A stretch of 64,000 nucleotides of DNA from Minisyncoccota bacterium (GCA_022842945.1 JALHOO010000002.1:25030-89029), one strand, 5' to 3'; counted from the first letter of the stretch, positions 1-30,358 are shown. Numbers and translations are program-made. Notes: a model not told the origin generated them from the sequence alone.

Positions 1-337
1 TTCCTGTTGACGCACGGGTGTAGGTTAGGGTTGCGAGCGCCGCATTAAGCGCAGACACTGCACCACTCAGGCTTACTGACCCTGAACCGTTTCCACTCAT
101 CGTTACCCCATCAACACTAGAGAGACTCATCGTACCGGATGTAGTACGCAGCTTAACTGGGGTTGTAGACGCTGCTGGTCCCACAATCTGAAAACCACTA
201 ATAGAAGTAGCAACGTTTGGCGTTGTGGTGGCGTTGCTGCCCGCCGTAAGCGAGAGCGCAGCATGGACAGAATCGCCGAAAGAGAATGCGGCAACGCAGA
301 CCATGAATGTAAATGTGAGACCCCGGACCAACTTCAT
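1..337 (-). CDS. N-terminal part of a secreted Ser/Thr/Gly-rich repeat protein (signal peptide MKLVRGLTFTFMVCVAAFSFGDSVHA); ORF runs off the window edge
   Basis: Manual translation of the minus strand from ATG (complement 335-337). Hydrophobic signal peptide. No stop before coordinate 1. Confidence 0.4.
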   Translation of the reverse strand, partial: MKLVRGLTFTFMVCVAAFSFGDSVHAALSLTAGSNATTTPNVATSISGFQIVGPAASTTPVKLRTTSGTMSLSSVDGVTMSGNGSGSVSLSGAVSALNAALATLTYTRASTG

Positions 338-402
338 ACGTGAAGTATAGCAATGCCGTGAGCATTCGACATAGGGCACTTTGGGATAGAATCTTCTGCC
401 GA

Positions 403-431
403 ATAGTGAAAGCCCGGCATAAACCGGGCTT
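403..431 (-). terminator. GC-rich hairpin GTGAAAGCCCGG-CATAAA-CCGGGCTTTCAC downstream of the MBL/rhodanese/ArsR operon
   Basis: Perfect 12-bp stem seen in sequence. Weak U-tract. Confidence 0.4.
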
Positions 432-528
432 TCACGTACGTGTTGCTCTGGTAGGACAGGATTGGCACCAGGTTAGAGAATGGATTGGCCTGTTTTAGTG
501 CACTGACGTAACCAAGTTACGCGCAAGT

Positions 529-1449
529 CTACATTTTGCTCTTTGAAAAGACGCTATTGACCGGAATCTTGAGAAACTCCGCTCCGGTTTCCTGGTCCTT
601 AGGGATGTGTCCCGCTCGCATATTTACCTGAAGTGACGGGATGATGAGGCGAGGCATACCGAGTGTCTCATCGCGCTTCTTTCGAAGACTAGCGAAAGCT
701 TGTAAAGTTGTGTCTTTATTCAAGTGTACATTTGTACGCTTCTGCTCCCCAACAGTTGTCTCAAACAAGTAGTCTGTACGTCCTTCCGGTAGGTAGTCGT
801 GGCACATGAACATGCGCATAGATTCCGGTAGCGTGAACAACTTTTGTGCTGACGCGTGCATATCCTCTGCGCTCCCGCCCGGGAAATCAACCCGAGCAGT
901 GCCGTAGTCAGGCATGAAGAGAGTATCTCCTGCAAACACCGCATCCCCCACCACATACGTAATGTCTGCGGGTGTGTGACCCGGTGTCGCAATAACCAGG
1001 ACTGGAATATCGCCGATTGAAAACTCGTCCCCGTCCTTAAAGAGTCGGTCAAACTGACTACCGTCTCTCTCAAACTCTGTACCCTCGTTGAATACTTTGC
1101 CGAATGTTTCCTGCACATCGAGAATCTTCTCACTTATTGCAATCTTTCCCCCGAGCCGTTCTTGTATATACGGCGCAGCAGACAAATGGTCCGCATGTAC
1201 ATGTGTCTCAAGGATCCATTCAACATGATATGCGTTCTCTTCAATATGCTTTATTAACTGGTCTGCACTCTTACACGAGATAGTGGCGCTCTCTGGTTCG
1301 TAGTCGAGAACACTATCAATAACTGCGCACCTCTTTGATGCATCGTCCGCAACTACGTAGCTAATAGTGTTCGTTGCAGGGTCGAAGAACCCCTTAACGG
1401 AGGGGTGGTAGTTAAGCAGTGCTTCATAGTTAGACATGGCTCTATGCAA
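529..1449 (-). CDS. MBL-fold metallo-hydrolase, ETHE1/Blh-like persulfide dioxygenase candidate
   Basis: THVHADH metal-binding motif and glyoxalase-II-like fold. Operon context with rhodanese and an ArsR-type regulator. Confidence 0.7.
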   Translation of the reverse strand: MHRAMSNYEALLNYHPSVKGFFDPATNTISYVVADDASKRCAVIDSVLDYEPESATISCKSADQLIKHIEENAYHVEWILETHVHADHLSAAPYIQERLGGKIAISEKILDVQETFGKVFNEGTEFERDGSQFDRLFKDGDEFSIGDIPVLVIATPGHTPADITYVVGDAVFAGDTLFMPDYGTARVDFPGGSAEDMHASAQKLFTLPESMRMFMCHDYLPEGRTDYLFETTVGEQKRTNVHLNKDTTLQAFASLRKKRDETLGMPRLIIPSLQVNMRAGHIPKDQETGAEFLKIPVNSVFSKSKM

Positions 1450-1974
1450 TTACGCTCTATTCCATGGCATCTTAGCCAATAGCATGGTCATTCCGCACCA
1501 GCCAGTAAGTCCAGCTACAAGGAGTCCAACGCCCGCGACACCTGAAAGCACAAACCACAGAGGCGACACCATGAGTCCAAGAATATGTGCGATGACGATG
1601 AGTACACCGGCTGCAATAAACGTCTGCCGCATGAGCGATAGGCGCAACGAGATCTTGGCCGTGCCATACCCGGCTTCTTCCCAGGACAAGATTCCTCCTT
1701 CCACATTTACTAGCTCAGCCTTTATCCCAAGCGCAACTAGCTTCTCCATCGCCGCAACACCTCTACGACCGGAACGGCAATGCACGTAAATAGTTTTCTT
1801 GTCTTTAAACTCCTGCACATGGCGCTCGATATCATCAAGCGGAACGGAACGGACGCCACTGATGTGCTTTTCTTTATATTCAGCAGGCGTACAAACATTG
1901 ATGAAATCAACCGAGGAGTTACTCTTCTCTGCCTCTATTACTTCCTTGAACGACGAAACGGATATGTGCTTCAT
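1450..1974 (-). CDS. Membrane-anchored rhodanese (YgaP-like: rhodanese domain + C-terminal DUF2892 two-helix membrane anchor)
   Basis: Catalytic loop CRSGRRG. Hydrophobic C-terminal ~60 aa. 1-nt junction with the upstream MBL gene. Confidence 0.75.
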   Translation of the reverse strand: MKHISVSSFKEVIEAEKSNSSVDFINVCTPAEYKEKHISGVRSVPLDDIERHVQEFKDKKTIYVHCRSGRRGVAAMEKLVALGIKAELVNVEGGILSWEEAGYGTAKISLRLSLMRQTFIAAGVLIVIAHILGLMVSPLWFVLSGVAGVGLLVAGLTGWCGMTMLLAKMPWNRA

Positions 1975-2234
1975 TTTTGTTTGATTAGAACGAGTACCCT
2001 TCGCGCAAGGTCTGTATACTCTGGAGAAACGTTTTTATAATACACATGCCGGCCGCTTTCCCGCGTCTGCACGATGCCAGCATCCCGAAGCACCGCAAGA
2101 TGCTGAGACAACGCACTCTGGCTCAACGCACATTTTCGTAAGAGCTCACTTACCGTTACTTCCTTTGCAAGGCAAGCAATAAGCTGTACACGCTGAGAGT
2201 TGCCGAGCGCCCTGCATAGATCCTTGAGTTCCAT
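1971..2234 (-). CDS. ArsR/SmtB-family HTH repressor (BigR/YgaV-like sulfide-responsive type)
   Basis: 87 aa with a winged-HTH signature (SQSALSQHLAVLRDAGIV). Cys residues in alpha1/alpha2. 4-nt overlap with the rhodanese gene. Confidence 0.7.
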   Translation of the reverse strand: MELKDLCRALGNSQRVQLIACLAKEVTVSELLRKCALSQSALSQHLAVLRDAGIVQTRESGRHVYYKNVSPEYTDLARRVLVLIKQK

Positions 2235-2237
2235 ACC

Positions 2238-2263
2238 ATTATATTAGTATTTACTAATATAAT
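2238..2263. promoter_or_regulatory. Perfect 12-bp inverted repeat ATTATATTAGTA-TT-TACTAATATAAT, candidate ArsR-type operator overlapping the promoter/start of the regulator
   Basis: Seen directly, 4 nt upstream of the arsR-like start codon. Contains a TATAAT-like hexamer. Confidence 0.6.
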
Positions 2264-2353
2264 ATGCAAGCTTATCCCCGCTTGGTTCGTGCCCTACCAA
2301 CAGACCACTGATTTACCTACAAATCGTAACCAACCTAGTCTCGGCAGCAGTTT

Positions 2354-3085
2354 TCAGAGAACTCTACCTTCTTCTTCCCTTGAGCCCTCACCTCCTGCAG
2401 GACCAGTCTCTCTTGGCGAAGAGATTATAGTGTCGAACTCATCTTGTGTTATATATCGTGGCTTGTACACACTGCCGCGAGACTCAATCTGGGCAACAAA
2501 GGCTCTCAGGTGATTACGCGAGCCCTTTAAAAGATTTTGGTATACGAGTTTTATATCGTCATTGTCAGACTGAGCCAAGCGTTCTTGCAGATCTTTAATA
2601 TCGAGATCTTCGATGAGAGCACCAACCATAAGCGCATCCATTTCAGACCTTTGTCCTTTCGTAACAAGATCCGTATAGAGCTCTGCTAAATCTGAGTTAG
2701 CAAACTTCCCAGCAGTGTCGTCTAGAACAGGATCTGTAATGTTGTACTTAACAAGCACTGTTCTTACAGCCTCAGTATGGCTCTGTTCACTCTGTGAGAT
2801 GTTTTTAAAAATAGGAAATCCCCACTTTTCGTAAAGCATGGTGTACACATCGCGTGCAAGCTTCTCCTCCTCACGCATGAACAATAGACCCTCCTTCTCA
2901 TTTTCAGAAACACCTTGCACAGGCAGAGATGTAATCTGTGGACGTAAAGACAAGAAATCAGACGAGTCTGGCGTGTCGGAAACAAGTTCGCTTGTACCTC
3001 CTCGCAGCAGACTACCAACTACAACAGCACTCGTAAGACCTAGAGCGACTACTGCGACTGCAATGCCAACTGTTGTTTTTTTCAT
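2354..3085 (-). CDS. DUF2202 ferritin-like domain protein with N-terminal signal/TM anchor
   Basis: FMREEEKLARDVY-type DUF2202 motif. Hydrophobic N-terminus. Confidence 0.55.
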   Translation of the reverse strand: MKKTTVGIAVAVVALGLTSAVVVGSLLRGGTSELVSDTPDSSDFLSLRPQITSLPVQGVSENEKEGLLFMREEEKLARDVYTMLYEKWGFPIFKNISQSEQSHTEAVRTVLVKYNITDPVLDDTAGKFANSDLAELYTDLVTKGQRSEMDALMVGALIEDLDIKDLQERLAQSDNDDIKLVYQNLLKGSRNHLRAFVAQIESRGSVYKPRYITQDEFDTIISSPRETGPAGGEGSREEEGRVL

Positions 3086-3133
3086 ACTCTGCAGTATACC
3101 GGAGCAAAAAGTTACAAATTGATAATCCGCTAA

Positions 3134-3163
3134 TGGGAAACGGCGCCCTAAAGCGCCGTTTCC
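3134..3163. terminator. Perfect hairpin GGGAAACGGCGC-CCTAAA-GCGCCGTTTCCC between the DUF2202 gene start and the tRNA-like element
   Basis: 12-bp GC stem. T-rich run (TAAATTTGTT) on the plus side. Likely terminates the minus-strand RNA element at 3170-3200 and/or acts bidirectionally. Confidence 0.45.
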
Positions 3164-3169
3164 CTAAAT

Positions 3170-3200
3170 TTGTTGCGGGGGCCGGAATCGAACCGGCGTC
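3170..3200 (-). ncRNA. tRNA-like 3' module (T-stem GCCGG / loop TTCGATT / CCGGC, then acceptor strand CCCCGCA + A); no canonical 5' half within 100 nt; part of a ~400-bp ORF-free block
   Basis: Minus-strand read ...GACGCCGGTTCGATTCCGGCCCCCGCAACA. The only upstream match to the acceptor strand is GCGGGG near 3485 and TGCGGGA near 3582. Confidence 0.35.
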
Positions 3201-3571
3201 TGGAGGTTCTTTTACACTTACTGTTTCCAGCAAGAATGGACTATCCCATGATCCTGAACCAGGACCCTCCCATTATAGTCTCTGAACCTTTCCCGAATTA
3301 CTTCGAGACTTGGCTGCTGATTGCCGAATCTCCCTGTTTTTCGCGCATTCACGCTCATCCTTTCGGATCACGTTGTAGCACAAGGAGCTCTAACGGTATT
3401 CCAGCAATTTAGAGAGTTTTTCCACTACCCGTTACCGGATAGGGTCACGTTGTTCACATGAGCCTCCCGAGGTACCTCTCCTCTACCCCGCTATGCATTT
3501 CTTCACACAAGCGCACGAGCGCTATGTCCATAGAATACGCCACATCGCGTCTTTTGCAAGTCCTCTAGAAT

Positions 3572-4165
3572 CTAAATCTCCCCATGCTCCCGCATAACAA
3601 CTTCGTACATCGCAATAGTGCGGTGCGCCATATGTTCTGAAAGCTGGAACGCCTGTCCGCTATGCGCTATCTCGTTGCGCACTTTATGTGCGTCCCACGC
3701 ATGCTGGAGCGAACGGAACCTGCTGGGATCAACTGCCTTCAGTTTCTCCCCTACTGAGTTTCCTGGATAGCCCAACTGGCTCAACAAGTCGTCGAGCATG
3801 ATGTCGGCCTCGATAATAGCCTGGCGCCAATCACTCTCATGCGGACGCTCAACCAACTCTCGAATGTGTTCCCAGCGAGAATGGTCACGCTCCGTCTCTG
3901 CATGACTTGCGTGAATAGTTGCGTATAGCGGCTCCTCTTCCTTGCGTACCTGATGGAACCTAATGGTTGCGTGTATGAAAATAGCGAGCAGCGCTATAGA
4001 AGCGATAACTGCAAGGCCGGTAACCATAAGCCAAACACTTGAGGCAAGCTGAAGAAAGTTCGCCTGCAAAGAAAACCCTCCGGGGTTCGTGAGGAGCTCG
4101 TAGAGAAGCCTAAAGAAATACTCGACGTTTAGAAAGTGAACGGTTGGTTCTGACGTAGTACCCAT
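3572..4165 (-). CDS. Membrane-anchored protein with a C-terminal all-alpha domain carrying an R-x4-H (RNEIAH) HEPN-like motif
   Basis: One strong TM helix (residues ~40-65). C-terminal motif VRNEIAHSG. 9 nt downstream of gatA on the same strand. Confidence 0.35.
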   Translation of the reverse strand: MGTTSEPTVHFLNVEYFFRLLYELLTNPGGFSLQANFLQLASSVWLMVTGLAVIASIALLAIFIHATIRFHQVRKEEEPLYATIHASHAETERDHSRWEHIRELVERPHESDWRQAIIEADIMLDDLLSQLGYPGNSVGEKLKAVDPSRFRSLQHAWDAHKVRNEIAHSGQAFQLSEHMAHRTIAMYEVVMREHGEI

Positions 4166-4173
4166 CCCTCTGA

Positions 4174-5607
4174 TTATAGCGTCTCTCCCGTCACTTCTGC
4201 GCCCATAGTGAACAATAGGTCGTCAGCACCGTGCGCAGACGTGAAATGTATACCAACCGGAAGAGAAACGCCGTCTCTCTCAACCATTCCCATAGGTACC
4301 GAGATTGCGGGCATGCCGGTGAGGTTTGCGGTAACCGTAAACACGTCTTCAAGATACATAGAAACAGGGTCGCTCTTCTCGCCAAACCTGAATGCCGGAG
4401 ACGGTGTCGTTGGAAACGCAATCACGTCACAGGACCCAAACGCTGCATCATACTCAGCACGAAGTACATCACGCGCCTTATCTGCCTTGCGGTAGTACGC
4501 ATCAATATAGCCAGACGAAAGCACGAAGGTGCCCAAAAGAATACGGCGAATGGTCTCAGACCCGAAGCCTGAAGACTTGCTCTGTACATAGTCCTCAAGG
4601 AGAGACTCTCCGCGCTCTGCTAGCCCATACCGAATACCGTCATAGCGGGCAAGGTTCGCCGAGGCTTCGGCCGGCATAATCACGTAGTACGCAGATAGCG
4701 CATAGCCACTTGTTGGGAGAGATACATCAACGAGAGTGTGGCCCTTTTCGGTAAGAGCGGCAAGAGTGCGCTCAAAGCTCTCTAGCACATCCGCATCCAA
4801 GCCCTCAACGAGAAGATGCCTCGGCACCCCGATGCGAAGAGACTTCCCAACCTCTTTCACAGGATACGTATCGTCTGTAAGCGTAGTGGCATCAAGCGGA
4901 TCATGGCCCTTCATTACGTCATACAGGATCTTTGCGTCCGCAACAGACTTCGCGAGTGGACCAGCCTGATCTAGAGACGACCCAAGCGCAATAAGACCGC
5001 TTCGTGAAATGCGCCCGTAGGTAGGCTTCATACCTACGAGTCCAGTGTGTGCTGCTGGCTGGCGAATGGATCCTCCTGTATCTGTACCAAGAGCCGCGAG
5101 CGCCGTGTGCGCGGAAGCGGCCGCACTTGAACCTCCGGAAGAACCTCCCGGAACACGCGTGACATCTACAGGGTTCTTTGTCGGGCCGTATGCCGAGTGC
5201 TCGGTTGACGAACCCATAGCGAACTCGTCCATGTTGGTGCGTCCTACAAACAGCACTCCCGCTTCTTTCAGTTTCTTCGTAACCGTAGAGTCGTACGTTG
5301 CGGTGTAGTTCGCAAGCATCTTGCTGGCCGCGCTCGCCACATGTCCTTCTATAAGAATGTTGTCCTTCATCGCAAGCGGAATACCGCACAAGAGAGACGC
5401 ATTCTCCCCTTCCGCATCAATGCGTGCCTGAGCTCGCGCAATAGCATCAGCATCTGCAGGAAAGAGCTCAAGGTAAGCGTTCAGCTCAGGGTTTCGCCGT
5501 GCAGCTTCAGCACTACACGCGTCCCACAACTCCTGTACAGAAAAAGTCTTCGACCGCAGTCCTTTTGCGGCCTCAACAATAGTGAGCTCGTTGAGTGGTT
5601 TAGTCAT
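4174..5607 (-). CDS. gatA: Glu-tRNA(Gln)/Asp-tRNA(Asn) amidotransferase subunit A
   Basis: Amidase signature family, 477 aa from the internal Met (MTKPLNELTIVEAAKG). The 38-aa upstream extension in the ORF track is an Arg-rich overlap with gatC, so the start was moved to 5607. Confidence 0.85.
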   Translation of the reverse strand: MTKPLNELTIVEAAKGLRSKTFSVQELWDACSAEAARRNPELNAYLELFPADADAIARAQARIDAEGENASLLCGIPLAMKDNILIEGHVASAASKMLANYTATYDSTVTKKLKEAGVLFVGRTNMDEFAMGSSTEHSAYGPTKNPVDVTRVPGGSSGGSSAAASAHTALAALGTDTGGSIRQPAAHTGLVGMKPTYGRISRSGLIALGSSLDQAGPLAKSVADAKILYDVMKGHDPLDATTLTDDTYPVKEVGKSLRIGVPRHLLVEGLDADVLESFERTLAALTEKGHTLVDVSLPTSGYALSAYYVIMPAEASANLARYDGIRYGLAERGESLLEDYVQSKSSGFGSETIRRILLGTFVLSSGYIDAYYRKADKARDVLRAEYDAAFGSCDVIAFPTTPSPAFRFGEKSDPVSMYLEDVFTVTANLTGMPAISVPMGMVERDGVSLPVGIHFTSAHGADDLLFTMGAEVTGETL

Positions 5608-5902
5608 GGCTGATGATCTGCTTAACGGACAGCGAGTCTCCGCTCTTCTCTGGGAACTGCGCAACAATCTTCTCGGTCCAGGTACCCGATGCATACGGCT
5701 CCGTGTCTTCCCGCAATACATTACGCACTTCGCTCTGTACGCGTCCTGATTCAGGAAGCGTTAGCTCGTCGAGCTTGCCCACATACGCAAGAATGCTATC
5801 AAATTCAGTCGCAAAGCGTGCCAGGTCCGCTTCAGGGACCGTAACGCGAGCAAGACTCGCTAGGCGAGCAACATCTTCCGCTGAGGCTTTTGCAGTACTC
5901 AT
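5600..5902 (-). CDS. gatC: Glu-tRNA(Gln) amidotransferase subunit C
   Basis: 100 aa, GatC-like. 8-nt overlap with the gatA start. Confidence 0.75.
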   Translation of the reverse strand: MSTAKASAEDVARLASLARVTVPEADLARFATEFDSILAYVGKLDELTLPESGRVQSEVRNVLREDTEPYASGTWTEKIVAQFPEKSGDSLSVKQIISHD

Positions 5903-5914
5903 ACAGGCAATCTA

Positions 5915-7954
<2,040 letters not shown>

Positions 7955-7985
7955 CTACCCTATCGAACCCCTTGCCGCCCACTCC

Positions 7986-8447
7986 CTAATAGAAGACTTT
8001 GAGACCTCGCTCAACACGTCGGGGATCTGAAGAGGAGCACGAATTAAAACCGTTTGCGTAGATGTTTGTGACACCCGTCTGGTTCTTAAAGACCTGAACG
8101 GTGCCCTGTGTCCCTCCGGTTGCACACGGGATACTAAATTCAGACGTACGGACACCTCCAGACTGCGAGGTAGTAAATCCCGTAACAGGGGCACCAGCGC
8201 AGCGCACCTCGCCTGCCGCATTTCCCTGGTAGTCATAGCGAAACACGTTCATCTTCTGATCCCAGTAGAGCGCACATTCCATAGCAGAGTCTGCCGCATA
8301 GAACGCATACTGCGACTGCCGAGCTGTTGAGGAGAGGGTTACCTGCTTTAGCGCAATATCCAAAAGCGCGAGACCCACAGACAAAAGTACCGAGGTTAAA
8401 ATCATGGCAACAAGGAGCGTAAAGCCTCTGTGTGGAGTATGCATCAT
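7986..8447 (-). CDS. Pseudopilin/minor pilin-like protein (prepilin N-terminus RGFTLLVAM, lacks Glu5)
   Basis: Class-III signal-like N-terminus followed by a hydrophobic helix. Overlaps the upstream pseudopilin gene by 4 nt. Confidence 0.55.
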   Translation of the reverse strand: MMHTPHRGFTLLVAMILTSVLLSVGLALLDIALKQVTLSSTARQSQYAFYAADSAMECALYWDQKMNVFRYDYQGNAAGEVRCAGAPVTGFTTSQSGGVRTSEFSIPCATGGTQGTVQVFKNQTGVTNIYANGFNSCSSSDPRRVERGLKVFY

Positions 8448-26897: not shown

Positions 26898-26974
26898 GCA
26901 CCCTTAGCTCAGTTGGTTAGAGCACCTAGCTTATACCTAGGCGGTCCTTGGTTCGAGTCCAAGAGGGTGCACCA
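26898..26974 (+). tRNA. tRNA with anticodon loop CTTATAC (anticodon UAU), a candidate tRNA-Ile2(UAU) reading AUA
   Basis: Hand-folded cloverleaf: acceptor GCACCCT/AGGGTGC (7/7 Watson-Crick), D-stem GCTC/GAGC, anticodon stem CCTAG/CTAGG, T-arm CTTGG-TTCGAGT-CCAAG, encoded CCA. Confidence 0.7.
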
Positions 26975-29872: not shown

Positions 29873-30280
29873 GGGGGTGACCGGCTTTGACGGTCCAGTA
29901 CTTTGAGAGACGTGCGACGCGGTGGAAGGATACTGACCACCTAAAAACGTATTCAACCAAACTTGCCAAGAACACTCTTGCAAGCGTAAAGTCGCCTTAC
30001 TTCGGTAAGTCCGATTTTGCGTTCGCTTACGCGTAAAAGCTTCGCGCTTTCGCCTAAGCGACGTTCATACCTCTAGGGTCTCGTAGCTAGGAGTATGGGC
30101 GGAATTCTCTACGAGATCGGTGCCCGCATGCCCAGGCGATGTACTTAAACAACGGGCGTAGGCAGGAACGTTTTCGCTAGCGTTCATACGCTTCTGCTGA
30201 AATCTAAACGTTAGCTACGCGTCGTAGACTCGCTCTTAAAGCTGGATTCGGACGGGAGTTCAACTCTCCCCACCTCCACC
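29873..30280 (+). ncRNA. ssrA: tmRNA (ssrA), one-piece, ~408 nt
   Basis: 5' GGGGGUGACCGGCUUUGACGG. 3' GGACGGGAGUUCAACUCUCCC-CACCUCC-A-CC. G3:U70 wobble in the acceptor. Candidate tag ORF ends ...GKSDFAFAYA* with TAA at 30033-30035. Immediately follows smpB. Confidence 0.85.
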
Positions 30281-30358
30281 GATATAGAACTATGTAGAAA
30301 TACATGGAACAGTAGAAAACCGCCCTGAGGCGGTTTTCTACTCGATACACAGTACTGA

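Follow-up and report, generated by a model that had tools for sequence, protein, structure and literature searches.

We analysed a 64,000-nucleotide (nt) stretch of DNA from a Minisyncoccota bacterium (GCA_022842945.1, JALHOO010000002.1:25030-89029), hereafter the window, in which a block of ~480 nt between the coding sequences ending at 3085 and 3572 contains no credible open reading frame (ORF), as a first-pass annotation of the sequence had noticed. The block belongs to a gene order, ligA-gatC-gatA-TM protein-tRNA, that is common to the window and its relatives, and the gene directly upstream of the tRNA encodes a 197-amino acid (aa) membrane protein (the TM, or transmembrane, protein; 3572-4165, minus strand). 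This protein has ~1,000 homologues, of which the few named ones are labelled Paceibacterota, Parcubacteria or Patescibacteria. The minus strand at 3492-3173 is very probably a tRNA-fMet(CAU) gene of Paceibacterota (Candidate Phyla Radiation (CPR)/Patescibacteria), in which a 249-nt group I intron without an ORF is inserted after U36 and before A37. Its parts are listed in Table 1 together with companion genes at the loci of relatives, which are cited by L numbers.

Exons, intron boundaries and conserved location

The first-pass annotation had described a T-arm and an acceptor 3' strand lacking a 5' half. The module is present as described (minus strand ...GACGCCGG-TTCGATT-CCGGC-CCCCGCA-A-CA, preceded by AGAC, 3201-3171), but it does have a canonical 5' half, which lies upstream at 3492-3458(-) and is separated from the 3' exon by 249 nt. 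This 5' exon (35 nt) reads AGCGGGG-TA-GAGG-AGAGGTA-CCTC-G-GGAGG-CTCAT, i.e., acceptor 5' strand, D-arm, anticodon-stem 5' strand and CUCAU, and the 3' exon reads AA-CCTCC-AGAC-GCCGG-TTCGATT-CCGGC-CCCCGCA-A; CCA is not encoded at its end, the bases after the exon being CA. The exons joined in silico folded into a cloverleaf. It had been observed correctly that ~75 nt 5' of the T-arm form neither a D-arm nor an anticodon arm, because this segment is intronic and makes up the 3' portion of the group I element. The acceptor complement noted 320-410 nt upstream is part of the 5' exon.

ARAGORN in default mode reported no tRNA at 3492-3173 and, elsewhere in the window, solely tRNA-Ser and tRNA-Ile(UAU). 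With introns allowed, it called one gene here, tRNA-Met(cat) with a 249-nt intron located 3' of the anticodon. An Rfam search identified a group I intron (RF00028) between the tRNA halves, at 3448-3217(-), with 67.4 bits versus a gathering score of 50 (E=6.4e-15) and covering model positions 1-253 (full length). No ORF was detected in the intron interior, and no similarity to the HNH gene of relatives described below. Thus, among the options raised in the first-pass annotation, an intron-containing tRNA is the one borne out by the RF00028 match, the intron-mode call and the uninterrupted alleles of relatives; a permuted tRNA is not needed, and a non-coding RNA with a tRNA-like domain is neither needed nor supported.

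The junctions were defined by relatives that carry the same tRNA at the same syntenic site, with or without an intron. In L001, L003 and L007, whose TM proteins are 83, 80 and 72% identical to that of the window, an identical 72-nt tRNA is uninterrupted, reads ...GGCTCAT/AACCTCC... (the slash marks the U36/A37 boundary) and has an Rfam tRNA score of 58.9 bits; the in silico spliced product of the window is 72/72 identical to it. In L005 (TM protein 73%), the tRNA is interrupted at this point by a 246-nt intron, which is ~90% identical to the window intron. Based on these empty-site alleles, the boundaries are exact: the intron spans 3457-3209, the 5' exon ends with U36 (3458) and the 3' exon starts with A37 (3208). 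Moreover, the exon sequences do not differ between alleles with and without the intron, despite flanking proteins that are merely 45-80% identical, which argues that the gene is under selection and implies that the window intron would be spliced.

Another option in the first-pass annotation was an attachment (att) site remnant at an island edge, in which the tRNA 3' end would have been duplicated by an integrated element that brought the downstream sulfide/rhodanese genes. Genes downstream of the tRNA do vary (M23 peptidase/Zip/FUR in L001; ArsR-rhodanese-MBL in L003, like the window), so the tRNA borders a variable region. However, the 3' end directly adjoins a complete intron, which in turn adjoins the 5' exon, so that the three form one intact gene, and the tRNA is found at this position in ~70-80 related species. 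In addition, a search for a second copy of the 3' module as an att repeat found none: its 22-nt T-arm/acceptor sequence has a single match in the 64 kb when up to 3 mismatches are tolerated, and none in 100 shuffles (0 expected by chance). Finally, the ORFs in 1-8000, not all of which were profile-scanned, included no evident integrase. We regard the probability of an att remnant as negligible and that of an interrupted tRNA gene as high.

Table 1. Parts of the interrupted tRNA-fMet gene in the window, and companion genes at loci of relatives
Feature	Coordinates	Strand	Basis or remark
5' leader/spacer	3493..3571	(-)	spacer comparison
tRNA-fMet(CAU) 5' exon, positions 1-36	3458..3492	(-)	ARAGORN intron mode; identity to uninterrupted tRNA of L001, L003, L007
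Group I intron, 249 nt, between U36 and A37	3209..3457	(-)	starts GUGAAC, last base omega-G (3209); Rfam RF00028; empty-site alleles; covariation
tRNA-fMet 3' exon, positions 37-73 (module of the first-pass annotation)	3173..3208	(-)	ARAGORN intron mode; uninterrupted relatives
12-bp G+C-rich hairpin, 8 nt after tRNA	3135..3164		terminator-like
P1	3445..3461	(-)	exon U33-C34-A35-U36 and intron G1-U2 pair with guide ACGUGA (3450-3445)
P2 hairpin, GUAA loop	3422..3444	(-)	9 pairs, 100% paired, 1 covarying
P4-P6 domain	3286..3406	(-)	majority of the 26 double-change pairs, in P5a, P5b, P6a
P4	3406-3401/3320-3315	(-)	
P5	3396-3394/3326-3324	(-)	
Extended P5a/P5b arm	3387-3330	(-)	GAAA loop, conserved A-rich bulge
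P6/P6a	3314-3286	(-)	
Catalytic core	3238..3282	(-)	P7, P3 3' strand, P8; matches Rfam consensus AGAGACUA...AUAGUCC
P7, bulged A	3282-3276 with 3243-3238	(-)	
P3 3' strand	3271-3267, pairs with 3416-3412	(-)	forms P3/P7 pseudoknot
P8	3266-3261/3255-3250	(-)	2 covarying pairs
P9 hairpin, GAAA loop	3217..3234	(-)	7 pairs, 5 covarying
HNH gene, between TM-protein gene and type A tRNA	L008:4594-4959(-), L005:5600-5959(-), L010, L018, L045, L050, L054, L057, L085, L086		intact
HNH gene	L035, L055		decayed
HTH protein gene	L023:4579-5250(-), L208:2501-3286, L044, L049, L063, L067, L075, L084		

Intron fold, predicted splicing and initiator identity

An alignment was built from 18 homologous introns (window, L005 and 16 species representatives; 82% mean column identity), in which variation is concentrated in stems. 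The 17 other introns are all inserted after U36, and all 18 sequences end with ...AAG (omega-G). RNAalifold recovered the anticodon stem, P1, P2, P3, P4, P5, a long P5a/P5b arm, P6/P6a, P8 and P9, and one spurious helix was replaced by P7, giving the P3/P7 pseudoknot; P7.1/P7.2 helices are absent from the fold. The resulting explicit fold contains 14 helices and 81 pairs, with 98.3% of cells paired as compared to 39-42% when partners were slid. Changes on both sides were found for 26 pairs, and 0/500 shuffles reached the observed values. All 81 pairs are standard in the window copy. At the 5' splice site, the U36.G wobble (3458/3448) is U.G in 17/17 scorable sequences, and the P1 pair G1-C9 is swapped to C-G in L027 and L028. 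Downstream of P9 is a tail, UGUAAAAG, whose last base is the omega-G.

By standard group I chemistry, the precursor would be transcribed from the leader and end at the hairpin at 3135-3164, and the intron would fold into P1-P9. The last four 5' exon bases, UCAU, would pair with the internal guide GUGA, with U36.G marking the 5' splice site, which an external guanosine bound in P7 would attack; the terminal G (3209) would then occupy the G site, and the 3'-OH released at U36 would attack the 3' splice site. What keeps the exons together is presumably the anticodon stem of the tRNA itself (GGAGG/CCUCC), judging from the Anabaena tRNA-Leu intron, whose exons are aligned by the anticodon stem (Zaug et al. 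1993, as cited in PMC3984707). Ligation would yield a 72-nt tRNA identical to that of intronless relatives.

The window tRNA has several marks of an initiator, including the A1xA72 mismatch, A11:U24 (D stem GAGG/CCUC), G2-C71/C3-G70 and a CUCAUAA loop. Elongator tRNAs have a pyrimidine at position 11 and a purine at position 24. Among relatives, positions 1 and 72 are C1xA72 in L054, L055 and L067 and U1-A72 in L063. The acceptor stem and 3' end are identical to those of E. coli tRNA-fMet.

Several points weigh against a functional, spliced initiator tRNA at this site. Splicing of the window intron is here predicted from sequence. P3, P4 and P7 never vary among the 18 introns, so covariation is silent on these helices and their support comes from complementarity (P3 and P7 are fully complementary in 18/18 sequences) and from the Rfam alignment. 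The 3' exon showed no complementarity to the guide region that would form P10. The anticodon stem GGAGG/CCUCC has two of the three canonical G-C pairs (A29-U41, G30-C40, G31-C39); all intronless orthologues share this stem, which is therefore a trait of the lineage and not damage. Lastly, a second, intronless tRNA-fMet is possible outside the 64-kb window.

The incomplete set of G-C pairs also fits an elongator tRNA-Met or a lysidine-dependent tRNA-Ile2, as does the CAU anticodon, which is common to all three tRNA classes. Moreover, two Microgenomatia cases were labelled simply 'Met' in the survey by Nakagawa et al. (2026, mSystems, PMC13011429). Against these identities stand the 1x72 mismatch, A11:U24 and the similarity to the E. 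coli initiator mentioned above, as well as two further observations. Relatives encode a second, distinct tRNA(CAU) with G1-C72 and C11:G24, which is the elongator pattern, and L054 carries both genes. The window also encodes tRNA-Ile(UAU) (26898-26974), an alternative to the CAU-type tRNA-Ile2 (PMC8450103). We therefore consider an elongator or Ile2 identity very unlikely and favor the initiator. The tRNA-Ile(UAU) itself is a rare bacterial way to read AUA without lysidine, and suggests that the window lineage may lack CAU-type tRNA-Ile2 and TilS.

If a second tRNA-fMet gene exists elsewhere in the genome, the window copy could be a decaying pseudogene whose intron no longer splices. The absence from the window of the HNH partner gene found in relatives would agree with this, as in the homing-cycle model it corresponds to a late stage before intron loss. 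However, the exons agree at 72/72 positions with intronless orthologues that look functional, 81/81 intron pairs are intact, the conserved core matches the family consensus and the RF00028 score is above the gathering threshold. CPR genomes usually have single tRNA copies, which also counts against a pseudogene. Decay thus appears very improbable, and we retain the interpretation of an intact initiator gene.

Intron types and companion genes in relatives

We examined 80 loci from species-representative genomes that were fetched via the TM protein. The tRNA has no intron in 40/80 loci; 16/80 contain an intron of the window's type (type A, 244-271 nt, after U36), and 13/80 a different intron (type B) between U33 and C34, which leaves CAU in the 3' exon. 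Type B introns are 210-252 nt long in these 13 loci (L023, L044, L047, L049, L056, L059, L061, L063, L067, L075, L076, L081 and L084) and up to 295 nt if L208-L210 are included. In the remaining loci, the contig stops too early or the exons are divergent. Five homologues scanned with RF00028 scored 61-84 bits, and both types reach the gathering score in several loci. ARAGORN in intron mode labelled type B genes tRNA-Ser(tga) or tRNA-Glu(ttc) (L023, L044, L067 etc.) and two type A genes (L027:4608-4922, L028) tRNA-Leu(cag), because the junction was misplaced. Since standard tRNA finders miss or mislabel the gene, such genomes seem to be without an initiator tRNA.

The three states are interleaved in a GatA+TM neighbour-joining tree of 70 taxa, with at least 23 changes (an approximate value, from a quick distance tree), and many sister pairs differ, for example type A in the window and no intron in L001, and likewise type A in L008 and no intron in L009. 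A 21-nt invariant core of type A was found in at least 120 metagenome contigs, and hosts with readable flanks always had the arrangement ...GCGGGG...CAU/intron/AAC...CCCCGCAA tRNA. The core had no match among viral contigs, and a viral origin was accordingly rejected. Contigs often end in or beside the intron (L022, L033, L058, L078 and many short metagenome contigs, e.g., L093, L101, L203). Presence/absence polymorphism of the intron may break assemblies and hide the initiator tRNA in metagenome-assembled genomes.

Intron-bearing loci differ from intronless loci in the spacer between the TM-protein gene and the tRNA. In intronless loci, its median is ~54 nt and most spacers are 37-71 nt, whereas spacers of at least 300 nt were found in 12/16 type A and 9/13 type B loci versus 3/38 intronless loci (p=5e-8). 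The type A insert encodes, in the opposite orientation, a ~122-aa protein that contains CxDCG...DFDH...N...CANCH. This protein matches HNH endonuclease families of PHROGs (E=1e-22) and shares homology with an HNH gene that Nakagawa et al. reported within a tRNA-Asn intron of Paceibacteria (hhalign probability 96.9%, E=1.6e-10; PMC13011429). Pfam HNH gave 17.3 bits, below its 21.4 cut-off, and a profile search of PDB with this protein gave no match. The gene is intact in 9/16 and decayed in 2/16 type A representatives and is present in 0/51 other loci (p=3e-9). It was also located 82-178 nt upstream of the tRNA in 12/34 matching metagenome contigs, and at 1,520 nt in a thirteenth.

The type B insert encodes an unrelated partner, a 224-241-aa protein (224-261 aa across all loci in Table 1) with an N-terminal helix-turn-helix (HTH), which was detected in 7/13 type B loci and nowhere else; in three further independent look-ups it again adjoined a type B tRNA. 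The protein family has ~1,350 members. Its C-terminal domain is well predicted and has invariant GLYWGEGYK and TSLRRR. Searches of Pfam, of PDB sequences and of known folds gave no match for this domain, and a LAGLIDADG assignment was rejected on these grounds. The HTH protein could represent a new homing-endonuclease family or an accessory factor.

Four stages were seen among the loci: an uninterrupted tRNA, an intron with the HNH gene, an intron with a decayed HNH gene, and an intron by itself. This pattern fits a homing cycle and collaborative homing, in which an ORF-less intron is combined with a free-standing endonuclease, as known from two phage systems (review PMC3984707; T4 mobE, PMC2790892). 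As in phages, the ORF-less intron and an adjacent free-standing HNH gene strictly co-occur in relatives (11/16 versus 0/51); unlike the phage cases, which involve protein-coding genes, the host gene here is a bacterial chromosomal tRNA, and the window has no endonuclease gene. Identities of intron and HNH protein correlated moderately with host identity (rho ~0.4), and some pairs were discordant. Judging from these genomic patterns, the free-standing HNH gene probably spreads the type A intron by collaborative homing. We give roughly even weight to a broader model, in which the window would be the endonuclease-free end stage of a collaborative-homing element circulating in Paceibacterota, the putative enzyme would cut uninterrupted anticodon-loop DNA, and the unrelated pair of 33/34 intron and HTH protein would compete for a site 3 bases away.

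The window copy has lost, or never received, the HNH gene: tblastn found none in the 64 kb, leader included. The leader contains a weak promoter-like pair, TTGCAA (3559-3554) and TATTCT (3537-3532) separated by 16 nt, which is also present in intronless relatives; a promoter scan of the leader gave no site above the scan's own threshold. The leader then reads ATGGACAT-AGCG exactly at the tRNA start of intronless relatives. The sequence CATAGCG, which consists of the last three leader bases and the first four tRNA bases, occurs twice, 31 nt apart (3526-3520 and 3495-3489), with 24 extra bases between the two copies, and the second copy is the real tRNA start. The duplication may be a recombination or deletion scar, left by intron arrival or by removal of the HNH gene. 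On the other side of the tRNA, the perfect 12-bp hairpin of the first-pass annotation is present, with its coordinates shifted by one base (3135-3164, not 3134-3163). Orthologues with and without an intron are both followed by homologous or analogous hairpins; the hairpin is thus terminator-like, belongs to the tRNA gene and is not tied to the intron. A different hairpin, GCTTC...GAAGC, was seen in the leader just before the tRNA in several type A alleles (L008:5050-5090, L010:5050-5088, L079:4630-4657) and not in intronless alleles, and may be part of a co-transferred tract.

Additional genes were observed between the TM-protein gene and the tRNA. Examples include a 380-aa ORF that by eye resembles the phenylalanyl-tRNA synthetase (PheRS) alpha subunit in two type B loci (L056:4622-5764, L061:4623-5765), a PemK/MazF toxin in a type A locus (L060:4638-5045) and an NYN-domain protein in an intronless locus (L024:4621-5148). 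This spacer seems to be an insertion hotspot. The TM-protein gene adjoins gatA in ~90 loci fetched via the TM protein or the type B companion, and tRNA-fMet is beside it in almost all readable ones. In L032 (8,591 nt, a species representative), the TM-protein gene is present with no recognisable tRNA-fMet exon within 4 kb downstream, and the tRNA may have moved or strongly diverged. The TM protein of the window has an RNEIAH (HEPN-like) motif and no Pfam match. Elsewhere in the window, the tmRNA mentioned in the first-pass annotation is genuine (Rfam match at 29873-30281).

Relation to known tRNA introns and significance

A group I intron in a tRNA is a known kind of element, and one reportedly occurs in tRNA-fMet of cyanobacteria, e.g., Synechocystis and Gloeobacter (Biniszkiewicz et al. 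1994; Paquin et al. 1997). In Patescibacteria, 95 complete genomes yielded 22 intron-bearing tRNAs (PMC13011429). The introns are located at 35/36 in tRNAs for Asn, Asp and Tyr, at 33/34 in those for Phe and in two Microgenomatia Met(CAU) tRNAs, and at 36/37 in those for Thr but in no CAU tRNA. That paper names 33/34 as the usual tRNA-fMet site, lists fMet introns at 33/34 as IC3 (Table S5) and places no Patescibacteria tRNA intron in subgroup IC; endonuclease genes were sought inside introns solely, and transfer was judged limited (PMC13011429). Tables of the same paper supplied the intron panel for profile scoring. The type B profile reached 86-99 bits with cyanobacterial and Bacteroidota fMet 33/34 introns, and type B is therefore assigned to the classical fMet 33/34 lineage, here in Paceibacterota other than that of the window. 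Its predicted occurrence in this group contrasts with the absence of subgroup IC from Patescibacteria in the survey (PMC13011429).

For the type A profile, no panel member exceeded 27 bits, the best being Patescibacteria and cyanobacterial Asn 35/36 introns; the nearest members were IA-labelled Asn 35/36 introns (23-27 bits). Scores were at most 19 bits with IC3-labelled introns, ~14 bits with the one fMet 33/34 intron reported and 7-10 bits with IC3-labelled Arg 36/37 introns, and no match was reported with an approximate Azoarcus sequence. Based on its panel scores, type A is therefore considered a separate lineage.

The window intron shares with the cyanobacterial fMet intron a sporadic distribution among related species and the usual lack of an ORF, but the latter is an IC3 intron inserted at 33/34, 5' of the anticodon (PMC13011429), whereas the window intron is at 36/37 and only weakly similar (~14-19 bits); identity of the two was rejected on profile scores. 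With the Patescibacteria introns of the survey, it has in common the phylum, the short ORF-less form in the anticodon loop, the failure of annotation tools to find them and the logic of detection. It differs from the Asn introns in score (at most 27 bits) and in its long P5 extension, which they lack (PMC13011429).

The 36/37 introns of Proteobacteria and Cyanobacteria (tRNA-Arg(CCU); Azoarcus tRNA-Ile(CAU)) likewise follow U36 and share GNRA loops in P2 and P9 with the window intron. The guide GUG(A) of the window intron stands directly before P2, as in Azoarcus. However, the host tRNA is different and the window intron has an extra P5a/P5b arm; an Azoarcus-like IC3 intron was supported neither by the panel scores nor by the P5 extension. 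A literature search, of incomplete coverage, turned up no paper describing an initiator tRNA of CPR bacteria with an intron at 36/37. This 36/37 tRNA-fMet intron lineage thus appears unreported yet common.

The more interesting result lies in the relatives, where two introns occupy neighbouring sites of one tRNA, each with a free-standing companion gene. One essential tRNA thus exists in three states (no intron, 36/37 and 33/34) in ~70 close species, and each intron type comes with an adjacent gene of its own, providing a densely sampled natural series for testing the homing cycle and the collaborative-homing route. These data qualify two statements in the survey, i.e., that Patescibacteria have no IC-type introns and that mobility is limited (PMC13011429). 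If the proposed homing is true, it would run against the inference of limited transfer from the lack of intron-internal endonuclease genes (PMC13011429). It would also place collaborative homing in a cellular chromosome and a tRNA gene, and would explain the persistence of introns in minimal genomes.

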